Shown in pieces: positions 2,796 to 8,518 of a DNA stretch of 40,186 bases. How positions within the stretch are numbered: position 1 is the first letter of the stretch; every line of letters begins with the position of its first letter. The position numbers and the translations under genes are program-made. Below the pieces are notes generated by a model that did no database searches, was not told the origin of the DNA, and saw nothing but the letters and a program-made list of their open reading frames with translations. The DNA lies in IMG/VR virus record IMGVR_UViG_2728369554_000009, positions 1 through 40,186 of that record. One strand, 5' to 3'. The stretch comes from a virus (Duplodnaviria > Heunggongvirae > Uroviricota > Caudoviricetes).

Positions 2796-3677
2796 TTACA
2801 TAGATGTTTCGTTTAATTCTTCCCGACGAACGCTGTAAACGTCGGTGGCTTTTGCCAGCAGTTCGTCATCATCTGAAAGTTTTTGTGCAATGTATTTGTA
2901 AGCCTTATCCAGTTCGGAGACAGTGCTGTAATTCATCGCTGCGCTGGTAAAGGCCATCAGCATTTCTTCTGGATCACGGCTATCCGCTTTACGAGTTTGC
3001 TCATCAGGCTTTTTCACTGGTTTAGCGTTGATCAGACTGTTCATTCCCGCAGCAGTAGTTGTTTGCGGAGTAATGTCTCGCTCAACGCGCGGTGCCGTTT
3101 CCTGTAATTCGTCAGGGGTGTAAACACCGAGAAGCACATCAGGAGCGTGCAGGCGAGCCCATCGTTTCGTGCAAAGATAGGCAAGCTGCTGGCGCGGATC
3201 CTGTTCCCACAATGGAGAGTTACGCACTCCGGCTTGCGCCATACTGATGGTAAGCTCACGGGGTTCTGTTTCACCTTTAAGAACTGCTGACACAGTTACC
3301 GTCAGATTCGGTGATTTATCTGTTTTGCCGTTAACATTCGACCAGTCACCGCTCCAGCGATAATTCAGGCGTGTCGCCAGCAGGCTGGAAGAGGATACGA
3401 CCGCGTTTACCAACTGTGCTTCGTAGCCTAACGTTCCGTTTACCACATGCGTTTTCTGCGCCACGGCGAAAGGGTTCATTCCCCACTGTGCCGCCTGCAT
3501 AGTCACCGCCAGGCAATCGGCAGGTTTGCCTTCAAGATGTTTCGGTACAGTCGCTTTGCTTTGTGACATCAACTCCGCGAAACGCACCAGTTGATTCATG
3601 CCCTCGGGGCTGAAGATTGCCGCAGCAGTGCCTACAGTTGCGCCTGGTTGTGATGTGATTGCGATATCATTGCTCAT
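2796..3677 (-). CDS. recT: RecT-family single-strand annealing recombinase
   Basis: 293 aa; conserved core LAVTMQAAQWGMNPF...NGTLGYEAQLVNAVV resembles RecT/Redbeta-type annealing proteins; translationally coupled (ATGA overlap) to upstream exonuclease gene. Confidence 0.75.
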   Translation of the reverse strand: MSNDIAITSQPGATVGTAAAIFSPEGMNQLVRFAELMSQSKATVPKHLEGKPADCLAVTMQAAQWGMNPFAVAQKTHVVNGTLGYEAQLVNAVVSSSSLLATRLNYRWSGDWSNVNGKTDKSPNLTVTVSAVLKGETEPRELTISMAQAGVRNSPLWEQDPRQQLAYLCTKRWARLHAPDVLLGVYTPDELQETAPRVERDITPQTTTAAGMNSLINAKPVKKPDEQTRKADSRDPEEMLMAFTSAAMNYSTVSELDKAYKYIAQKLSDDDELLAKATDVYSVRREELNETSM

Positions 3678-4495
3678 ACATACATATCCTGTTTACGTGC
3701 CCAGTCAGGGCGTTTAATAATTTCCACGCCGCCCCATTCATCATTTATGCGGCATTCGTGATAGGTATTCAGATCCCGGCGGAACAGAGCGTGCCCGGCA
3801 TCGACATCCGGCGCATCCAACTCGAACACGCGTACCGGATACCGACCACAATCAATGCTTTCGCTCACGGCAAGAAAGAAAAAACCATGCGGTTGACCAG
3901 TAACCCTCGTTGCGCCTTCGCGGTACATTGCGTCCTGCACGTGGTAGCGGAATTCCTCGATGTGGCGTGCAAAACGGTCCATATCTGCAACCTTTTTCAC
4001 GTCGACGATCACGTTGTGCTCGTTCAGCCATTTGTCTGGACGAATTCGGCACAACTCACCCGTCTCTTCATCGTTCCAGTACATTGATGCTTCGCAGTAA
4101 CCAGGTGCTTCCAACATCCAGCGTGCCGCCGGATGAGCCATTGCGCTATCACGCATGAGCTCAAGTTTTCGCCACTGCTCGACATCAAGTACCGTAATAC
4201 CCATATCCGCCACATCACGAAGAAATGCTTCTTCGTCAGCTTTACCTTGTTTTGTCCGACGATCGAATTTCGGTGACACGATGAAGCGTTTGTCGAATTC
4301 TCCAGGTTCCAGAAGCAGGCAGTGCAATGCGGTTCCCATATCCAATGCAGACTTTTTCTCTTCGTCTTCTGGTGCTGCCTGAACCCATTTAAGAAGCGCC
4401 GGATTCTTGGCAACCATGTCCAGTTGCGACTTACTCACGCCGTCACCTGCGTGGTAGTCTTCGTTGCTGATGCCGAAATAAATTCCCGGTTTCAT
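3674..4495 (-). CDS. PD-(D/E)XK exonuclease (RecE/YqaJ-like partner of RecT)
   Basis: 273 aa; RIRPDKW...NVIVDVKK gives a D...(D/E)xK nuclease motif; position immediately upstream of recT with 4-nt overlap. Confidence 0.75.
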   Translation of the reverse strand: MKPGIYFGISNEDYHAGDGVSKSQLDMVAKNPALLKWVQAAPEDEEKKSALDMGTALHCLLLEPGEFDKRFIVSPKFDRRTKQGKADEEAFLRDVADMGITVLDVEQWRKLELMRDSAMAHPAARWMLEAPGYCEASMYWNDEETGELCRIRPDKWLNEHNVIVDVKKVADMDRFARHIEEFRYHVQDAMYREGATRVTGQPHGFFFLAVSESIDCGRYPVRVFELDAPDVDAGHALFRRDLNTYHECRINDEWGGVEIIKRPDWARKQDMYV

Positions 4496-4980: not shown

Positions 4981-5027
4981 TGATTATGCGTATCTGGTTT
5001 GATGTCAATAGATATGAGTTAAAAAAA

Positions 5028-5042
5028 TTACCCATAAGGTAA
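5028..5042. promoter_or_regulatory. Operator-like palindrome TTACC-N5-GGTAA
   Basis: TTACCCATAAGGTAA between repressor terminator and early-left operon. Confidence 0.5.
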
Positions 5043-5053
5043 TCTTGCTGGCA

Positions 5054-5079
5054 ATAAAAAAGCCGCCATGAGGCGGCTT
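5054..5079 (-). terminator. Intrinsic terminator after repressor gene
   Basis: AAGCCGCC-ATGA-GGCGGCTT hairpin followed on minus strand by T-run. Confidence 0.7.
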
Positions 5080-5099
5080 ACTTACTGAAAAATATGATT

Positions 5100-5684
5100 T
5101 TATTGTTTGTTTTTTTCGTTCTGGCTGATGACAAATTCAATGTAACTTTCGATCTTTGCCTTCTCTGTTTCGGGTAACAATGCGTAGCGCGAGCGGTCAT
5201 AGTTGATAGTCGCAGGGTCGTGCGGGTGAATCAGTAATTCATAGCCGTGACGCCCGAATGCGGATGCAACATTCTCCAGGGTGGAAATGGAAACGCTGAC
5301 CTCATTGTTTAACAGGCGGCTGATTGTCACCTGGGCGACGCCGGATGCGCGGTGAAGTTTTCCCTGTGTTGAAAGGTAGCGGCTTTCGCTCATCCAGCGT
5401 TCCAGGTTGTGAGCCGCCAGCTGACCAATGTCGCTTGGGCCGACAGGCTGAAAACCTTCCTGAGAAAGCGAGCGATCGATATCAAGCCAGTTACGGGGTT
5501 TATTGGCGGCAGCTTCAATTTTTCGCGCAACCTGGTCGCCGATAACCTTCTTGCCAAGAGCCCAGCGGTTTACCAGATTTGCCTGAGTTCCAAGTTTTTC
5601 TGCCATCCGCGTCTGAACACCATTGAATTCACGGTCGATCAAGTCGTTGAGATTTTGCCTGCGGACGTCCTGGATACTTTTCAT
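5100..5684 (-). CDS. Prophage repressor candidate with two HTH segments and no S24 peptidase domain
   Basis: 194 aa; HTH-like segments (TRMAEKLGTQANLVNRW and ASGVAQVTISRLLNNE); no GDSM/Ser-Lys autocleavage motif seen; divergent from Cro-like gene; intrinsic terminator just downstream; no SD upstream of ATG 5684. Confidence 0.65.
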   Translation of the reverse strand: MKSIQDVRRQNLNDLIDREFNGVQTRMAEKLGTQANLVNRWALGKKVIGDQVARKIEAAANKPRNWLDIDRSLSQEGFQPVGPSDIGQLAAHNLERWMSESRYLSTQGKLHRASGVAQVTISRLLNNEVSVSISTLENVASAFGRHGYELLIHPHDPATINYDRSRYALLPETEKAKIESYIEFVISQNEKNKQ

Positions 5685-5739
5685 TTTCTGGAAAATCGCC
5701 TCATATATGAATCAGTAGATGATTCAATTTAAAGCAATA

Positions 5740-5754
5740 TTACCCAACAGGTAA
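5740..5754. promoter_or_regulatory. Operator-like palindrome TTACC-N5-GGTAA (immunity region)
   Basis: TTACCCAACAGGTAA in repressor/cro divergent region; imperfect copy TTACCTTATGGGTGA at 5788-5802 and half-site 5767-5771. Confidence 0.55.
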
Positions 5755-5838
5755 ATGCACCTCATAGGTAACTATCCTTGATTTTTGTTACCTTATGGGT
5801 GAATATTTATTATCTGAAATAAATATCAGGCAATAGCT

Positions 5839-6069
5839 ATGAGCGATAACGGACATTTCGATTTCAAAAAGCACTGGCTTGCACTTACTCCGGATGAGCG
5901 TGAAGCCTTCGCACAGGAAGCCGGAACGACGAGTCACTATATCCAGACTCACTTAACAGGTAAGCGAAAAATGCCAGGTAAAGTATTGATGAATGGGCTT
6001 TTTAAAGCCTGTAAAACAAGACAATGGCTGCGCTCAAAAGCAGAACTGGCATACTTCTTCTACTCATGA
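5839..6069 (+). CDS. Cro-like small HTH regulator
   Basis: 76 aa; EREAFAQEAGTTSHYIQTHLTGKRKMP HTH-like; divergent from repressor gene across a 154-bp region holding operator-like palindromes; followed by intrinsic terminator. Confidence 0.55.
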   Translation: MSDNGHFDFKKHWLALTPDEREAFAQEAGTTSHYIQTHLTGKRKMPGKVLMNGLFKACKTRQWLRSKAELAYFFYS

Positions 6070-6089
6070 TATCCAGCTACAACCCTCTG

Positions 6090-6113
6090 TAGACCGCCAC
6101 CCGGCGGTCTTTT
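6090..6113 (+). terminator. Intrinsic terminator after Cro-like gene
   Basis: AGACCGCC-ACCC-GGCGGTCT hairpin followed by TTTTC. Confidence 0.7.
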
Positions 6114-6124
6114 CATATCTATTC

Positions 6125-6139
6125 GTACCTCAAAGGTAA
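6125..6139. promoter_or_regulatory. Operator-like palindrome (imperfect, GTACC-N5-GGTAA)
   Basis: GTACCTCAAAGGTAA downstream of cro-like terminator, upstream of 6219 gene. Confidence 0.4.
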
Positions 6140-6218
6140 TAAAAAACCAAATCTGGTTGATCTTTTTTTGTGTCAGCACAAAATAACCGTAATCCCAATA
6201 CTAATAACAGGGCTTACC

Positions 6219-6419
6219 ATGGAAATCATTACACGTATTGATGCCGCAAAGCGCGGACTTAAACGCTACTACACCGGAAAACCATGTAAGCACGGACATG
6301 ACAGTGAACGCTGGGTTTACAACGGACACTGTGTTGAGTGCACCATGGAATCAAACCGTCGCATCAGGGCAGAGATTAAGCAGATCATGATTAATTCCAC
6401 CCCACAACATTCAAGCTGA
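6219..6419 (+). CDS. Small Cys/His-rich protein at the cII position (function unknown)
   Basis: ATG at 6219 (MEIITRIDAAKRGLKRYYTGKPCKHGHDSERWVYNGHCVECT...); C-x-H-x-H...C-x-x-C suggests a zinc-binding fold; the ORF-track start at 6168 is TTG. Confidence 0.45.
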   Translation: MEIITRIDAAKRGLKRYYTGKPCKHGHDSERWVYNGHCVECTMESNRRIRAEIKQIMINSTPQHSS

Positions 6420-6434
6420 TAGCGGAGATTAATC

Positions 6435-7274
6435 ATGAGCAGACATGCAACAGATTGGGCCTGGGAGACAGATCCAGGTAGCTCGTCATTAAAGCTCATA
6501 CTGCTCTCGATGGCTGACAGAGCCGATGAATATAACCTCTGCTACCCCAGCATAGAACGCCTCGTTAAAGACACTTGCCTGAATAAAAAAACCGTGCAGG
6601 CCGGGCTTATATCACTCATGAAAATGGGGCTTATTTCAGATACCGGAGAGAGAAAGGGAGCGACGAAAAGAGTGCGGGTTTTCTCTCTTAATATAACCAA
6701 AAACGGGAACATTAAAGGCAACCGGGAAGGGGGTAATGAACCCGAAAACGGTAATGTTACCGAAAACGGGAATATACCCAAAAACGGGATGTTGAATGAT
6801 CCCAAAAACGGGATGTTGAATGATCCCAAAAACGGGATGTTGAATGATCCCAAAAACGGGATCCAGAACCAGTCATATAACCAGTCATTTAACCAAGAGA
6901 GGGAGAGCAGGACAAAAAGCGGGGATTCTGTGCCTAATGACCCCGGCGCAAACAACGCCGTGATGAATAACTTTGTTCCTCCTGGTGGGCCAGGGCAATT
7001 AGGCAAATTTGTCATGCATGAACAATGGCAACCATCAGATGACTTTCTTCGGAAAAGCTCATTGCAGGGGATCTACCTGGACAGTCTGCCAACGGCACAG
7101 GAACTTGCAGAGTTCAGAATTTACTGGATGGCTGAGGGTAAGGCATACCATCAGGCACAGTGGGAGCAGAAGCTGGCAAGGCGGCTGCAGATTAGCAGAC
7201 AGAAGCAATCAACATTACCTGATAACAACGTTCCGCACTGGAACAGCCCTGAAGCATGGGAGGATTTCTTGTGA
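6435..7274 (+). CDS. Replication initiator (lambda O-like role; N-terminal HTH, repeat-encoding linker, DnaT-like C-terminus)
   Basis: 279 aa; N-terminal HTH-like LKLILLSMADRADEYNLCYPSIERLVKDTCLNKKTVQAGL; central linker encoded by tandem 24-bp repeats (NGMLNDPK x3); position upstream of P-like gene. Confidence 0.7.
   Translation: MSRHATDWAWETDPGSSSLKLILLSMADRADEYNLCYPSIERLVKDTCLNKKTVQAGLISLMKMGLISDTGERKGATKRVRVFSLNITKNGNIKGNREGGNEPENGNVTENGNIPKNGMLNDPKNGMLNDPKNGMLNDPKNGIQNQSYNQSFNQERESRTKSGDSVPNDPGANNAVMNNFVPPGGPGQLGKFVMHEQWQPSDDFLRKSSLQGIYLDSLPTAQELAEFRIYWMAEGKAYHQAQWEQKLARRLQISRQKQSTLPDNNVPHWNSPEAWEDFL
6696..6865. repeat. Iteron array inside the replication initiator gene (putative origin of replication)
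   Basis: Seven direct copies of RAAAACGG(G/T)A incl. three perfect 24-bp units CCCAAAAACGGGATGTTGAATGAT at 6777-6800, 6801-6824, 6825-6848; followed by AT-rich stretch. Confidence 0.65.
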
Positions 7275-8056
7275 ACAACGTTTTTACCGCGATACAAAAC
7301 CGTGACGGAGAAGCCCTTTCTCGCATGTCAGGTTATGAGCATCAGTACGTCAACAATGACAATGTGGTGAACATGTCAGCAGAGAGGCTTGTTGATGCCC
7401 TTTTCAAACAGCTGAAACAACTGTTTCCGGCGGCAGTGGTAACCAACCTGAAGACGCCAGAGCAGGAAGTTGCTGCAAAACAGCAGTGGATTGCTGCGTT
7501 TGCCGAAGGTGGGATCCGAACCCGTGAACAGGTTTCTGCTGGTATGCGCCACGCTCGCGCCAGTGAGTCTCCGTTCTGGCCGTCGCCAGGGCAATTCATC
7601 AAGTGGTGTAAAGACAGCAAGATGGTTCTTGGCGTCACCATTGACGATGTGATGGCGGAGTTTCACCGGTACAGCAAGGAAAAAAGTTTATATCCTGGTG
7701 GTCCCGAAAGATTCCCGTGGCGGCATCCGGTTATGTACTGGGTCGTATGTGATACCCGCCGTGCAATGTATCAGCGCCAGCTTAGCGAGATTGAGGTTGA
7801 GAAACACGCGCGCAGGTTGCTCGATGATTGGGCGAAAAAGGTGGCTTCCGGACAGCAGATACCCGATCCGGTGATCAGCATACAGGCAAAGCCAGAACCC
7901 ATGAGTACACCTCCGGACACAGGGAGAGACGTTTACCATCCACCAGGGCGAAGTTTCGGGTGCATGCCTAACGCCGCCACCCTGGGGGGAATAACACCGG
8001 CGCAGTGGCTGATGGAGGAATACAGGCGAGGAAAGGCAGCAGGATTTATCAAGTAA
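7256..8056 (+). CDS. Lambda P-like replication protein (helicase loader)
   Basis: GGIRTREQVSAGMRHARASESPFWPSPGQFIKWC closely parallels lambda P NGITTMEQVNAGMRVARRQNRPFLPSPGQFVAWC (recalled from memory); start uncertain (ATG 7256 or GTG 7271). Confidence 0.8.
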   Translation: MGGFLVNNVFTAIQNRDGEALSRMSGYEHQYVNNDNVVNMSAERLVDALFKQLKQLFPAAVVTNLKTPEQEVAAKQQWIAAFAEGGIRTREQVSAGMRHARASESPFWPSPGQFIKWCKDSKMVLGVTIDDVMAEFHRYSKEKSLYPGGPERFPWRHPVMYWVVCDTRRAMYQRQLSEIEVEKHARRLLDDWAKKVASGQQIPDPVISIQAKPEPMSTPPDTGRDVYHPPGRSFGCMPNAATLGGITPAQWLMEEYRRGKAAGFIK

Positions 8057-8093
8057 TACCAGCGCGATAGCGCATTTTTTTACGCCTCAATAG

Positions 8094-8108
8094 TTACCCA
8101 ATGGGTAA
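8094..8108. promoter_or_regulatory. Operator-like palindrome TTACC-N5-GGTAA
   Basis: TTACCCAATGGGTAA after P-like gene. Confidence 0.5.
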
Positions 8109-8155
8109 CAAAATGTTCTTAGATCTATTGATTTCGTGTCTTATGTGGTTTTTAA

Positions 8156-8170
8156 TTACCTTAGAGGTAA
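8156..8170. promoter_or_regulatory. Operator-like palindrome TTACC-N5-GGTAA overlapping SD
   Basis: TTACCTTAGAGGTAA ending 3 nt before ATG 8174; right half is the GAGGT Shine-Dalgarno. Confidence 0.5.
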
Positions 8171-8173
8171 ATC

Positions 8174-8518
8174 ATGAGAAAACAGATACAGGCTCTTGGT
8201 CGACTCAAAACAGGCCAGATGAACAAAACAGAATCTGCGTATTGCCAGCACCTTGAGCTGCGTAAACGTGCAGGGGAAATCGCCTGGTATCGATTCGAGG
8301 GTATCAAGCTGCGGTTAGCTGACAACACGTTCTATACGCCAGATTTCGCTGTGATGCTCGCCACCGGAGAGATGGAACTGCACGAAGTGAAAGGTTTCTG
8401 GACCGACGACGCCAGGGTGAAAACCAAAGTCGCCGCAGATCAGTATCCGTTCCGAATCATCGGGGTAACGGTTAAACCAAAGAAAGCAGGTGGCGGCTGG
8501 AACATCGAAGAGTTCTGA
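8174..8518 (+). CDS. DUF1064-family phage protein
   Basis: 114 aa; NKTESAYCQHLELRKRAGEIAWYRFEGIKLRL...YTPDF...HEVKG pattern typical of DUF1064; ATG 3 nt after a TTACC-N5-GGTAA palindrome whose right half supplies the SD. Confidence 0.55.
   Translation: MRKQIQALGRLKTGQMNKTESAYCQHLELRKRAGEIAWYRFEGIKLRLADNTFYTPDFAVMLATGEMELHEVKGFWTDDARVKTKVAADQYPFRIIGVTVKPKKAGGGWNIEEF

Follow-up and report, generated by a model that had tools for sequence, protein, structure and literature searches.

Does a repeat array inside the replication initiator gene of a phage mark an origin of replication, or does it serve another purpose, for instance in the encoded protein? The question arises from a viral DNA sequence of 40,186 base pairs (bp) (IMG/VR record IMGVR_UViG_2728369554_000009), which was analysed over its whole length and is called the window below. 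Its initiator gene lies in a region sharing 95-97% identity with Uetakevirus podophages, among them Escherichia phage phiV10, and a first-pass annotation had proposed that the repeats within this gene belong to a lambda-style origin. Our comparative analysis supports this proposal. The segment 6694-6902 is probably the theta replication origin of a phiV10-like temperate phage, built like the origins (ori) of lambda and phi80 and situated inside the phage's own initiator gene, and the repeats are, judged by their sequence, almost certainly the initiator-binding sites of such an origin. We draw this conclusion because the repeat unit, a dyad, matches the phi80 sites annotated as gp15-binding in geometry and nearly in sequence, because the motif is conserved as DNA, in three codon phases, after the N-terminal domain (N-domain) of the initiator in about 80 relatives, because N-domain and array stay joined despite exchange of the C-terminal domain (C-domain), and because a gene for a lambda-P-like helicase loader follows.

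The iteron array and the initiator

The sequence RAAAACGGKA occurs exactly seven times in the window, always on the plus strand and between positions 6699 and 6861, while shuffled sequences gave on average 0.22 and at most two matches. The seven direct repeats described in the first-pass annotation are thus genuine. Tandem Repeats Finder reported a period of 18 bp at 6732-6787 (3.1 copies, 78% matches), of 24 bp at 6777-6862 (3.6 copies, 100% matches) and of 12 bp at 6867-6895 (2.4 copies, 94% matches), the second of which corresponds to the perfect tandem 24-bp units that had been noticed before. The 16-mer ATCCCAAAAACGGGAT is present in three perfect copies (6799, 6823 and 6847) and in one copy with two mismatches (6775); with up to three mismatches allowed, no other copy was found in the window. 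As the earlier annotation had stated, the repeats reside in the linker-coding part of the gene. They encode residues 89-143 of the open reading frame (ORF), between the HTH_36 domain (amino acids [aa] 18-67) and the DnaT-like domain (aa 192-260), and the translated linker contains the tandem peptide DPKNGMLN, formerly written as NGMLNDPK.

While the repeats as such are real, the 10-mer by which they had been defined is not their actual unit. Judging from the sequence, the functional unit is a dyad of 16-18 bp, (G)ATCCC-AAAAAC-GGGAT(C), with an A-tract in its centre; the 18-bp duplex reads GATCCCAAAAACGGGATC. The weaker copies upstream follow the same plan (TAACC.., AACCC.., TTACC-GAAAAC-GGGAA, TACCC...), and the start-to-start spacings of the iterons are 45, 18, 18, 24, 24 and 24 bp. 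In lambdoid origins, at least four direct, dyad-symmetric sites are expected between the N- and C-domains of the initiator; here, seven copies are found (6694-6863). The terminal iteron is at the same time the start of a family-wide terminal block, GGNNNNC(A/G)(G/T)AAYC. We also observed four GATC sites within 66 bp (6798-6863), one per dyad arm, which make up the densest 100 bp of the window, although the total number of GATC sites in the window is inconspicuous (157 vs 156 expected). GATC in the arms is restricted to enterobacterial lineages, and an involvement of Dam/SeqA may be considered.

The encoded protein is a member of the HTH_36-type phage replication initiators (PF13730; phrog_1032). 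Its N-domain matches HTH_36 with an E-value of 1.9e-10, above the gathering score, and is of the winged-helix type, the wing extending to approximately aa 87. The linker encoded by the repeat zone comprises aa 88-165, and the C-domain matches PF17948, the DnaT DNA-binding domain, at aa 192-260 (E=1.2e-15) within a DnaT-like region spanning aa 188-273. Solved C-domains of DnaT in the PDB align with this C-terminal part (E about 1e-20), and aa 1-277 match phrog_1032, 'replication initiation protein', with an E-value of 3.9e-113. In GenBank the gene is named either 'primosomal protein I/DnaT' or 'replication initiation protein', and the phiV10 record contains no annotated origin. We rejected the label DnaT orthologue or 'primosomal protein I', which covers one domain only, the N-terminal half consisting of HTH_36 and the iteron linker. 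The architecture of full-length DnaT, a PriB-interacting N-domain followed by a C-domain binding single-stranded DNA (ssDNA), was not recovered in the protein, of which only aa 188-273 match, namely to residues 85-170 of DnaT. The product of the downstream gene is assigned to PF06992 (E=1.5e-56) and phrog_109 and shows 31% identity to lambda P (E=2e-35). The position of this loader gene immediately downstream, overlapping the stop of the initiator gene, is a further property of lambdoid origins.

Membership of the initiator in the lambda O family was also rejected. Phage_rep_O (PF04492), which is strongly matched by lambda O, phi80 gp15 and P22 gp18, gave no match to the window protein even at E<=10; pairwise BLASTP with phi80 gp15 detected no similarity, and hhalign against single O sequences yielded probabilities of 5-9%, i.e. 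no homology. When 46 N-domains were aligned by hhalign with an O profile of three sequences, a probability of 78% was reached, over the helix-turn-helix (HTH) and wing only. This value is no more than suggestive of a common winged-helix ancestry of the HTH_36 initiators and O, and in both families the iterons begin right after the wing. A search for homologues of the protein gave only sequences about 89-100% identical among the 120 matches listed, so no useful alignment for structure prediction was obtained, and the AlphaFold2 model of the N-domain calculated without an alignment had a predicted local distance difference test (pLDDT) value of 52 and was unusable.

Comparison of whole initiators revealed that the N-domain and the array travel together while C-domains are swapped. 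By tblastn, the N-terminal 147 aa including the repeat zone were found to be common to the phages or prophages GF-2, Vibrio H20, Acinetobacter AP22 and PPompW at 37-50% identity, and the DnaT-like C-domain was found separately in other phages, e.g., SPN1S. In Edwardsiella phage GF-2 (1501-2343 of locus L003), the HTH_36 N-domain, CCCAAAATTGGG iterons and the 12-mers are fused to a C-domain whose identity to that of lambda O is 62% across 144 residues (E=2e-67), and the next element is a P gene; the junction of this chimera lies just before a lambda-like palindrome, GAGAATTCTGACGAATCCTCAGAC. Vibrio H20 and Acinetobacter AP22 possess other C-domains, and the AP22 gene is followed by one for a DnaB-type helicase. 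Conversely, SPN1S has kept the DnaT-like C-domain but has a different N-domain together with different repeats, GTCCGCAT and AAGCGGAC. Thus the type of repeat goes with the N-domain, which is what one would predict if this domain reads the repeats. The two SPN1S repeats are mutual reverse complements, each present in three copies within the initiator gene of this Salmonella Uetakevirus phage (1048-1863 of locus L007). The next gene there encodes a DUF1064 protein and there is no P-like gene, which suggests that the DnaT-like domain is able to function in the absence of a P-type loader.

The right-hand flank and the predicted origin

The comparison of DNA elements used 80 diverse loci in genomes of alpha-, beta-, gamma- and delta-proteobacteria, each with a gene for the N-domain (40-87% identity). 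Of such loci, 77 entered the count of 11-mer enrichment, 82 distinct ones that of the terminal block, and 75 with an intact ORF the determination of codon phases. In 77 of 82 distinct loci, one copy of the terminal block immediately follows the last dyad, corresponding to 2.35 copies per kb vs 0.028 per kb elsewhere. It is read in codon phases of 62:12:3 in all loci and of 60:12:1 in those with intact ORFs. Among the 77 loci possessing the block, 52 have at least three units headed by (G)AAYC that are chained at intervals of 11-14 nucleotides (nt), and relatives from Acinetobacter contain an additional A-run, GAATCTAAAAATAAAAA, in the flank.

In the window, the first-pass annotation had recognised an AT-rich stretch with short direct repeats at this place. 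The repeats were confirmed: CCAGTCAT is present twice, as part of the 12-mers located at 6867-6902 (Table 1). The AT content is modest, amounting to 61% at 6860-6900. The duplex free energy there is -50 kcal per 40 steps, while the window averages -56 +/- 4.1, so that this region is about 1.5 standard deviations less stable. On sequence grounds, the flank is better termed a zone of conserved 12/13-mer repeats than an AT-rich tract. Lambdoid origins contain an AT-rich unwinding region directly promoter-distal to the iterons; in the window the composition at this place is not extreme, but 12/13-mers are conserved there in 77/82 loci. The CCAGTCAT repeats belong to a conserved, frame-independent DNA element, and the 12-mer block is the best candidate for an unwinding or loading zone. 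No DnaA box or IHF consensus was detected in 6200-7400.

By analogy to lambda O and its origin, dimers of the winged-helix N-domain would bind to the seven dyads, of which the four promoter-distal ones are the best sites. A complex resembling the O-some would then assemble on phased DNA bent by the A-tracts. The complex could destabilise the adjacent 12-mer and purine-rich zone, whose opening would relieve strain. The DnaT-like domain, which is a ssDNA binder in DnaT of E. coli, might then bind the exposed strand and/or recruit the P-like loader together with the host DnaB.

Several points weigh against an origin at this location. The flank is only modestly AT-rich, approximately 10% of the window positions being less stable than 6860-6900, and within the gene the lowest stability of any 40-mer is reached at 6677-6717, on the left side of the array. 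The minimum of the cumulative GC skew at about 5-6 kb coincides with a switch in the direction of transcription and gives no independent support. Furthermore, the N-domain belongs to HTH_36 and not to Phage_rep_O, so that its binding to the dyads is deduced and not carried over from a demonstrated homologue, and the gp15-binding sites of phi80 are an annotation of the record rather than primary binding data. Searches by phage name, by concept and with the literal iteron sequences revealed no paper on the origin of the phiV10 group. The search with iteron sequences returned only E2 sites of papillomaviruses, ACCGAAAACGGT. Homology to E2 was rejected: the iteron variant ACCGAAAACGGT(A) of Vibrio and Neptuniibacter equals the E2 consensus ACCGN4CGGT by coincidence, both being dyads with an A-tract.

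A rival reading is a purely regulatory function, in which the dyads bind the initiator or another protein and the true origin is located elsewhere; the dyads could then serve in autoregulation, in handcuffing or the control of copy number, in excluding related phages, or as a roadblock. Iterons of plasmids and of lambda do inhibit or titrate as well, lambda ITN3-4 being needed for the 'inhibition phenotype' (PMC3349717), and a strongly AT-rich unwinding element does not adjoin the array. However, the position, the polarity and the order of the elements (iterons, repeat block, C-domain, loader) match the ori of lambda, which has been defined by experiment, and those annotated in P22 and phi80, the motif is found nowhere else in the 40-kb window, and titration alone hardly explains why a conserved 12/13-mer block lies beside the last iteron. 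We regard a regulatory role without origin function as improbable.

Conservation of the repeats as DNA

The 11-mer [ACT]CC[AG]AAA[AT][CT]GG, searched on the coding strand, had 141 matches within the 330 nt that follow the N-domain (5.57 per kb) but only seven in the other 218 kb of flanking DNA (0.032 per kb), which is an approximately 170-fold enrichment. Most of the seven copies in the flanks are explained by the offset start of one short contig and by a second array in one Arsenophonus locus. This array of Arsenophonus nasoniae (467-540 of locus L110) comprises four iterons and a terminal CAGAATC block; situated about 1 kb upstream of the initiator gene, it is possibly the remnant of a duplicated or decayed initiator gene. 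The codon phases of the iteron motif were 112:31:10, and more than one phase was used in 26 loci. Accordingly, the linkers differ in what they encode: the window reads CCC AAA AAC GGG (PKNG), GF-2 and PPompW read ACC CAA AAA CGG GAT (TQKRD), and Vibrio H20 reads GAC CCA AAA ACG GAA (DPKTE). Since every codon phase is used by the motif, it is the DNA and not the peptide that is under selection.

These data contradict the assumption that the repeats matter only as protein, i.e. as a low-complexity DPKNGMLN linker made by slippage and devoid of a function at the DNA level. It is true that all seven copies of the window lie in one frame and generate a tidy peptide repeat, and that near-identical phages differ in copy number by drift, a behaviour also seen in neutral arrays of the microsatellite type. 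Yet a protein feature accounts neither for the mixed phases and the unrelated peptides PKNG, TQKRD and PKTE, nor for a motif that is strand-specific, strongly enriched, equal to the phi80 iteron and composed of arms that covary as a DNA dyad, and we hold this explanation to be most implausible.

The drift itself could be followed in 78 IMG/VR relatives whose N-domains are 99-100% identical to that of the window. They contain one to five perfect 24-bp junctions, most often two (the window has three), four to nine cores, and AACCAGTCAT one to three times. Their initiator genes are 792-888 nt long except for two truncated copies of 549 and 696 nt, and initiator proteins of 279, 287, 292 and 311 aa in the databases are consistent with variation in copy number. 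The DPKNGMLN repeat is a passive result of the in-frame duplication of a 24-bp binding site in a tolerant linker. In five further cases (loci L103, L117, L125, L144 and L162) the initiator ORF, of 112-148 codons, ends inside the repeat zone or shortly behind it. Such genes may be pseudogenes frameshifted by out-of-frame slippage of the array, a cost of placing repeats within a gene.

The arms of the dyad covary across lineages, as illustrated by the pairs GTCCC/GGGAC, ATCCC/GGGAT, CACCC/GGGTG, CCCCC/GGGGG and GTACC/GGTAC. Complementary bases were found at 111 of 188 arm positions vs 78 +/- 5 with shuffled partners, and none of 5000 shuffles reached the observed value, a count that is not a true probability because of the phylogenetic relatedness of the loci. 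Variability is higher in the A/T-rich centre than in the arms. Both properties are those that a binding site of a symmetric dimer should have.

Covarying arms would also preserve complementarity in hairpins of the mRNA or of ssDNA (translational pausing, antisense termination or a signal like those for primosome assembly), and the RNA of 6690-6905 folds somewhat better than shuffled sequences (z = -2.77), but with stems of only 5-6 bp around an A-rich loop of 6 nt, with a covariation that a palindrome binding a dimer would show just as well, and with lambda and phi80 iterons of the same form, those of lambda being bound by O as duplex DNA (PMC7466680), this possibility is extremely unlikely. 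Rfam gave only chance-level matches in 5000-8500, all outside the array, which likewise counts against hairpins. The scan for promoters and terminators disclosed nothing meaningful; the three weak terminator-like hairpins that it placed in tandem on the minus strand (6785-6852; TGGGATCATTCAACATCCCG followed by T5) are formed by pairing of neighbouring iteron arms. They are probably a by-product and could impede antisense transcription.

Genomic context and comparison with known origins

The early region surrounding the predicted origin is typical of a temperate phage and collinear with p37-p45 of phiV10. A repressor-like protein with two HTH motifs is encoded divergently from the replication operon, a DUF1064 gene follows the P-like gene, and a gene for a PDDEXK-like DUF3799 protein is situated upstream. 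The positions of all features are compiled in Table 1.

Table 1. Genes and DNA elements at and around the predicted origin (positions refer to the window).
Feature	Position	Strand	Remarks
Replication initiator gene	6435..7274	+	279 aa; HTH_36 N-domain, repeat-encoding linker, DnaT-like C-domain
Lambda-P-like helicase-loader gene	7256..8056	+	19-nt overlap with the end of the initiator gene
Iteron 1	6694..6709	+	TAACCAAAAACGGGAA; weak dyad, core match
Iteron 2	6739..6754	+	AACCCGAAAACGGTAA; core match
Iteron 3	6757..6772	+	TTACCGAAAACGGGAA; 15/16 bases as in the phi80 site annotated as gp15-binding, TTCCCGAAAACGGGAA
Iteron 4	6775..6790	+	TACCCAAAAACGGGAT
Iteron 5	6799..6814	+	perfect dyad ATCCC-AAAAAC-GGGAT, inside a 24-bp tandem unit
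Iteron 6	6823..6838	+	perfect dyad ATCCC-AAAAAC-GGGAT
Iteron 7 (terminal)	6846..6863	+	GATCCC-AAAAAC-GGGATC, perfect 6-bp inverted arms
Conserved post-iteron element	6864..6902	+	CAG and three 12-mers, AACCAGTCATAT / AACCAGTCATTT / AACCAAGAGAGG; candidate unwinding or helicase-loading zone
Purine-rich tract	6895..6926	+	AAGAGAGGGAGAGCAGGACAAAAAGCGGGGA; right of the 12-mers, purine fraction 0.71-0.76
Neighbourhood genes	5100-5684 (-), 5839-6069 (+), 8174-8518 (+), 3674-4495 (-)		temperate-phage early region

The location of an origin within an initiator gene is well known; here this arrangement is tied to a different, widespread initiator family. What goes beyond routine, as far as sequences can tell, is an iteron near-identical to that of phi80 despite the different initiator family, and the conserved 12/13-mer block. 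One may speculate, though we consider it rather doubtful, that the Phage_rep_O (phi80) and HTH_36 families, which are without demonstrable homology, recognise essentially the same 16-bp iteron and, jointly with this, that the 12/13-mer block (GAAYCnnnCAnn, three times) is a perhaps undescribed, Proteobacteria-wide signal for unwinding or helicase loading that occurs in three phases, is independent of C-domain and loader, and is shared with P22. If iteron recognition were shared, cross-binding or interference between phiV10-like prophages and replicons of the phi80 type could take place, each at the origin of the other.

The analysis provides a precise, testable prediction of the origin for the phiV10 (Uetakevirus) group, which includes O157 reporter and typing phages and prophages; the initiator gene was found in 424 of 5,426 complete E. 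coli genomes (about 8%). The same applies to the large family of HTH_36 initiators in phages of Vibrio, Acinetobacter, Edwardsiella, Pseudoalteromonas and others, whose genes are mislabelled as 'primosomal protein I/DnaT'. The locus is, moreover, a natural example of a DNA signal that constrains a coding region, one site being read in three frames across relatives, and of a lambdoid cassette of N-domain and iterons that is exchanged as a unit, apart from the loader-recruiting C-domain. In practical terms, the predicted origin defines a minimal fragment for phiV10-based replicons, and recoding or truncating the initiator gene would hit it.

The origin of lambda consists of four 18-bp iterons and an AT-rich tract of 38 bp; binding of O leads to the O-some, and unwinding takes place in the AT-rich tract (PMC3349717, PMC7466680). 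Its record contains four annotated iterons, ATCCCTCAAAACGAGGGA, inside O. Like the predicted origin of the window, that of lambda occupies a central position in the initiator gene and separates the parts encoding the N-domain, which binds DNA, and the C-domain, which recruits the loader, with dyad-symmetric iterons around an A-tract followed by a purine-rich flank and the P gene. The strand asymmetry of the purine-rich tract of the window also resembles that of the purine-rich AT tract of ori-lambda. On the other hand, the CCC and GGG of the lambda iteron are separated by 9 nt instead of 6, i.e. the arms are 3 bp further apart, the AT-rich tract of lambda is pronounced whereas the flank in the window has 12-mer repeats, and the N- and C-domain families are not those of the window protein.

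The Stx phages 933W and P27 possess six iterons vs four in lambda and 13 extra residues in O (PMC7466680). In them, the number of iterons varies naturally and changes the length of the linker (PMC7466680), as in the phiV10 group with its variable number of junctions. They are true variants of lambda O and its ori, while the protein family and the iteron geometry of the window differ.

Iteron plasmids such as pSC101, RK2 and P1 (oriR) have direct arrays of Rep sites beside unwinding repeats of the 13-mer type, and their initiators are winged-helix proteins (review PMC4980987). In these plasmids, the iterons lie outside the rep gene, are non-palindromic and are bound by Rep as a monomer, whereas the sites in the window are palindromic and intragenic.

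The phi80 record contains four sites annotated as gp15-binding inside gene 15 (AACCGGAAACGGGAA, TTCCCGAAAACGGGAA, TTCCCGAAATCAGGAA and TTCCCGAAAACGGTAG) at a spacing of 20-21 bp. They share with the window a 16-bp dyad of 5+6+5 bp, TTCCC-GAAAAC-GGGAA, an A-tract on the sense strand, a spacing of roughly two helical turns and the position in the linker of the initiator, and a gene for a P-like loader (gene 14) lies downstream. Iteron TTACCGAAAACGGGAA of the window deviates by one base from the phi80 consensus, and the perfect copies agree in 13 of 16 positions. The differences are that the N-domain of gp15 is Phage_rep_O (PF04492, E=6e-25) instead of HTH_36 and its C-domain is of the lambda O type instead of DnaT-like, that its sites are in mixed frames, unlike the 18/24-bp spacing in one frame in the window, and that phi80 is without the AACCAGTCAT 12-mers.

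In P22, iterons are likewise located inside the initiator gene, gene 18. They have another sequence (CGGTAAAAC..TTTACCG), the initiator belongs to the Phage_rep_O type, and what follows it is a DnaB-type helicase instead of a P-like loader. Right after the last iteron of P22, however, GAATCAGTCA is the same junction element as GAACCAGTCAT in the window and GAATCAGTCAT in GF-2, and the right-hand palindrome of P22, CCCCCTAAAGGGGG, recurs in relatives from Edwardsiella and Serratia. A palindrome, CCCCCCTAGCCCCCAAGGGGGAGGGG, about 60 nt after the last iteron in prophages of Edwardsiella, Serratia and Plesiomonas (loci L155, L159, L165 and L147), closely resembles CCCCCTTACCCCCTAAAGGGGG on the right side of the annotated P22 origin, which points to an exchange of parts of origins. 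Judging by their sequence elements, the origins of lambda, phi80 and P22 and that predicted in the window are evidently mosaics of shared parts.

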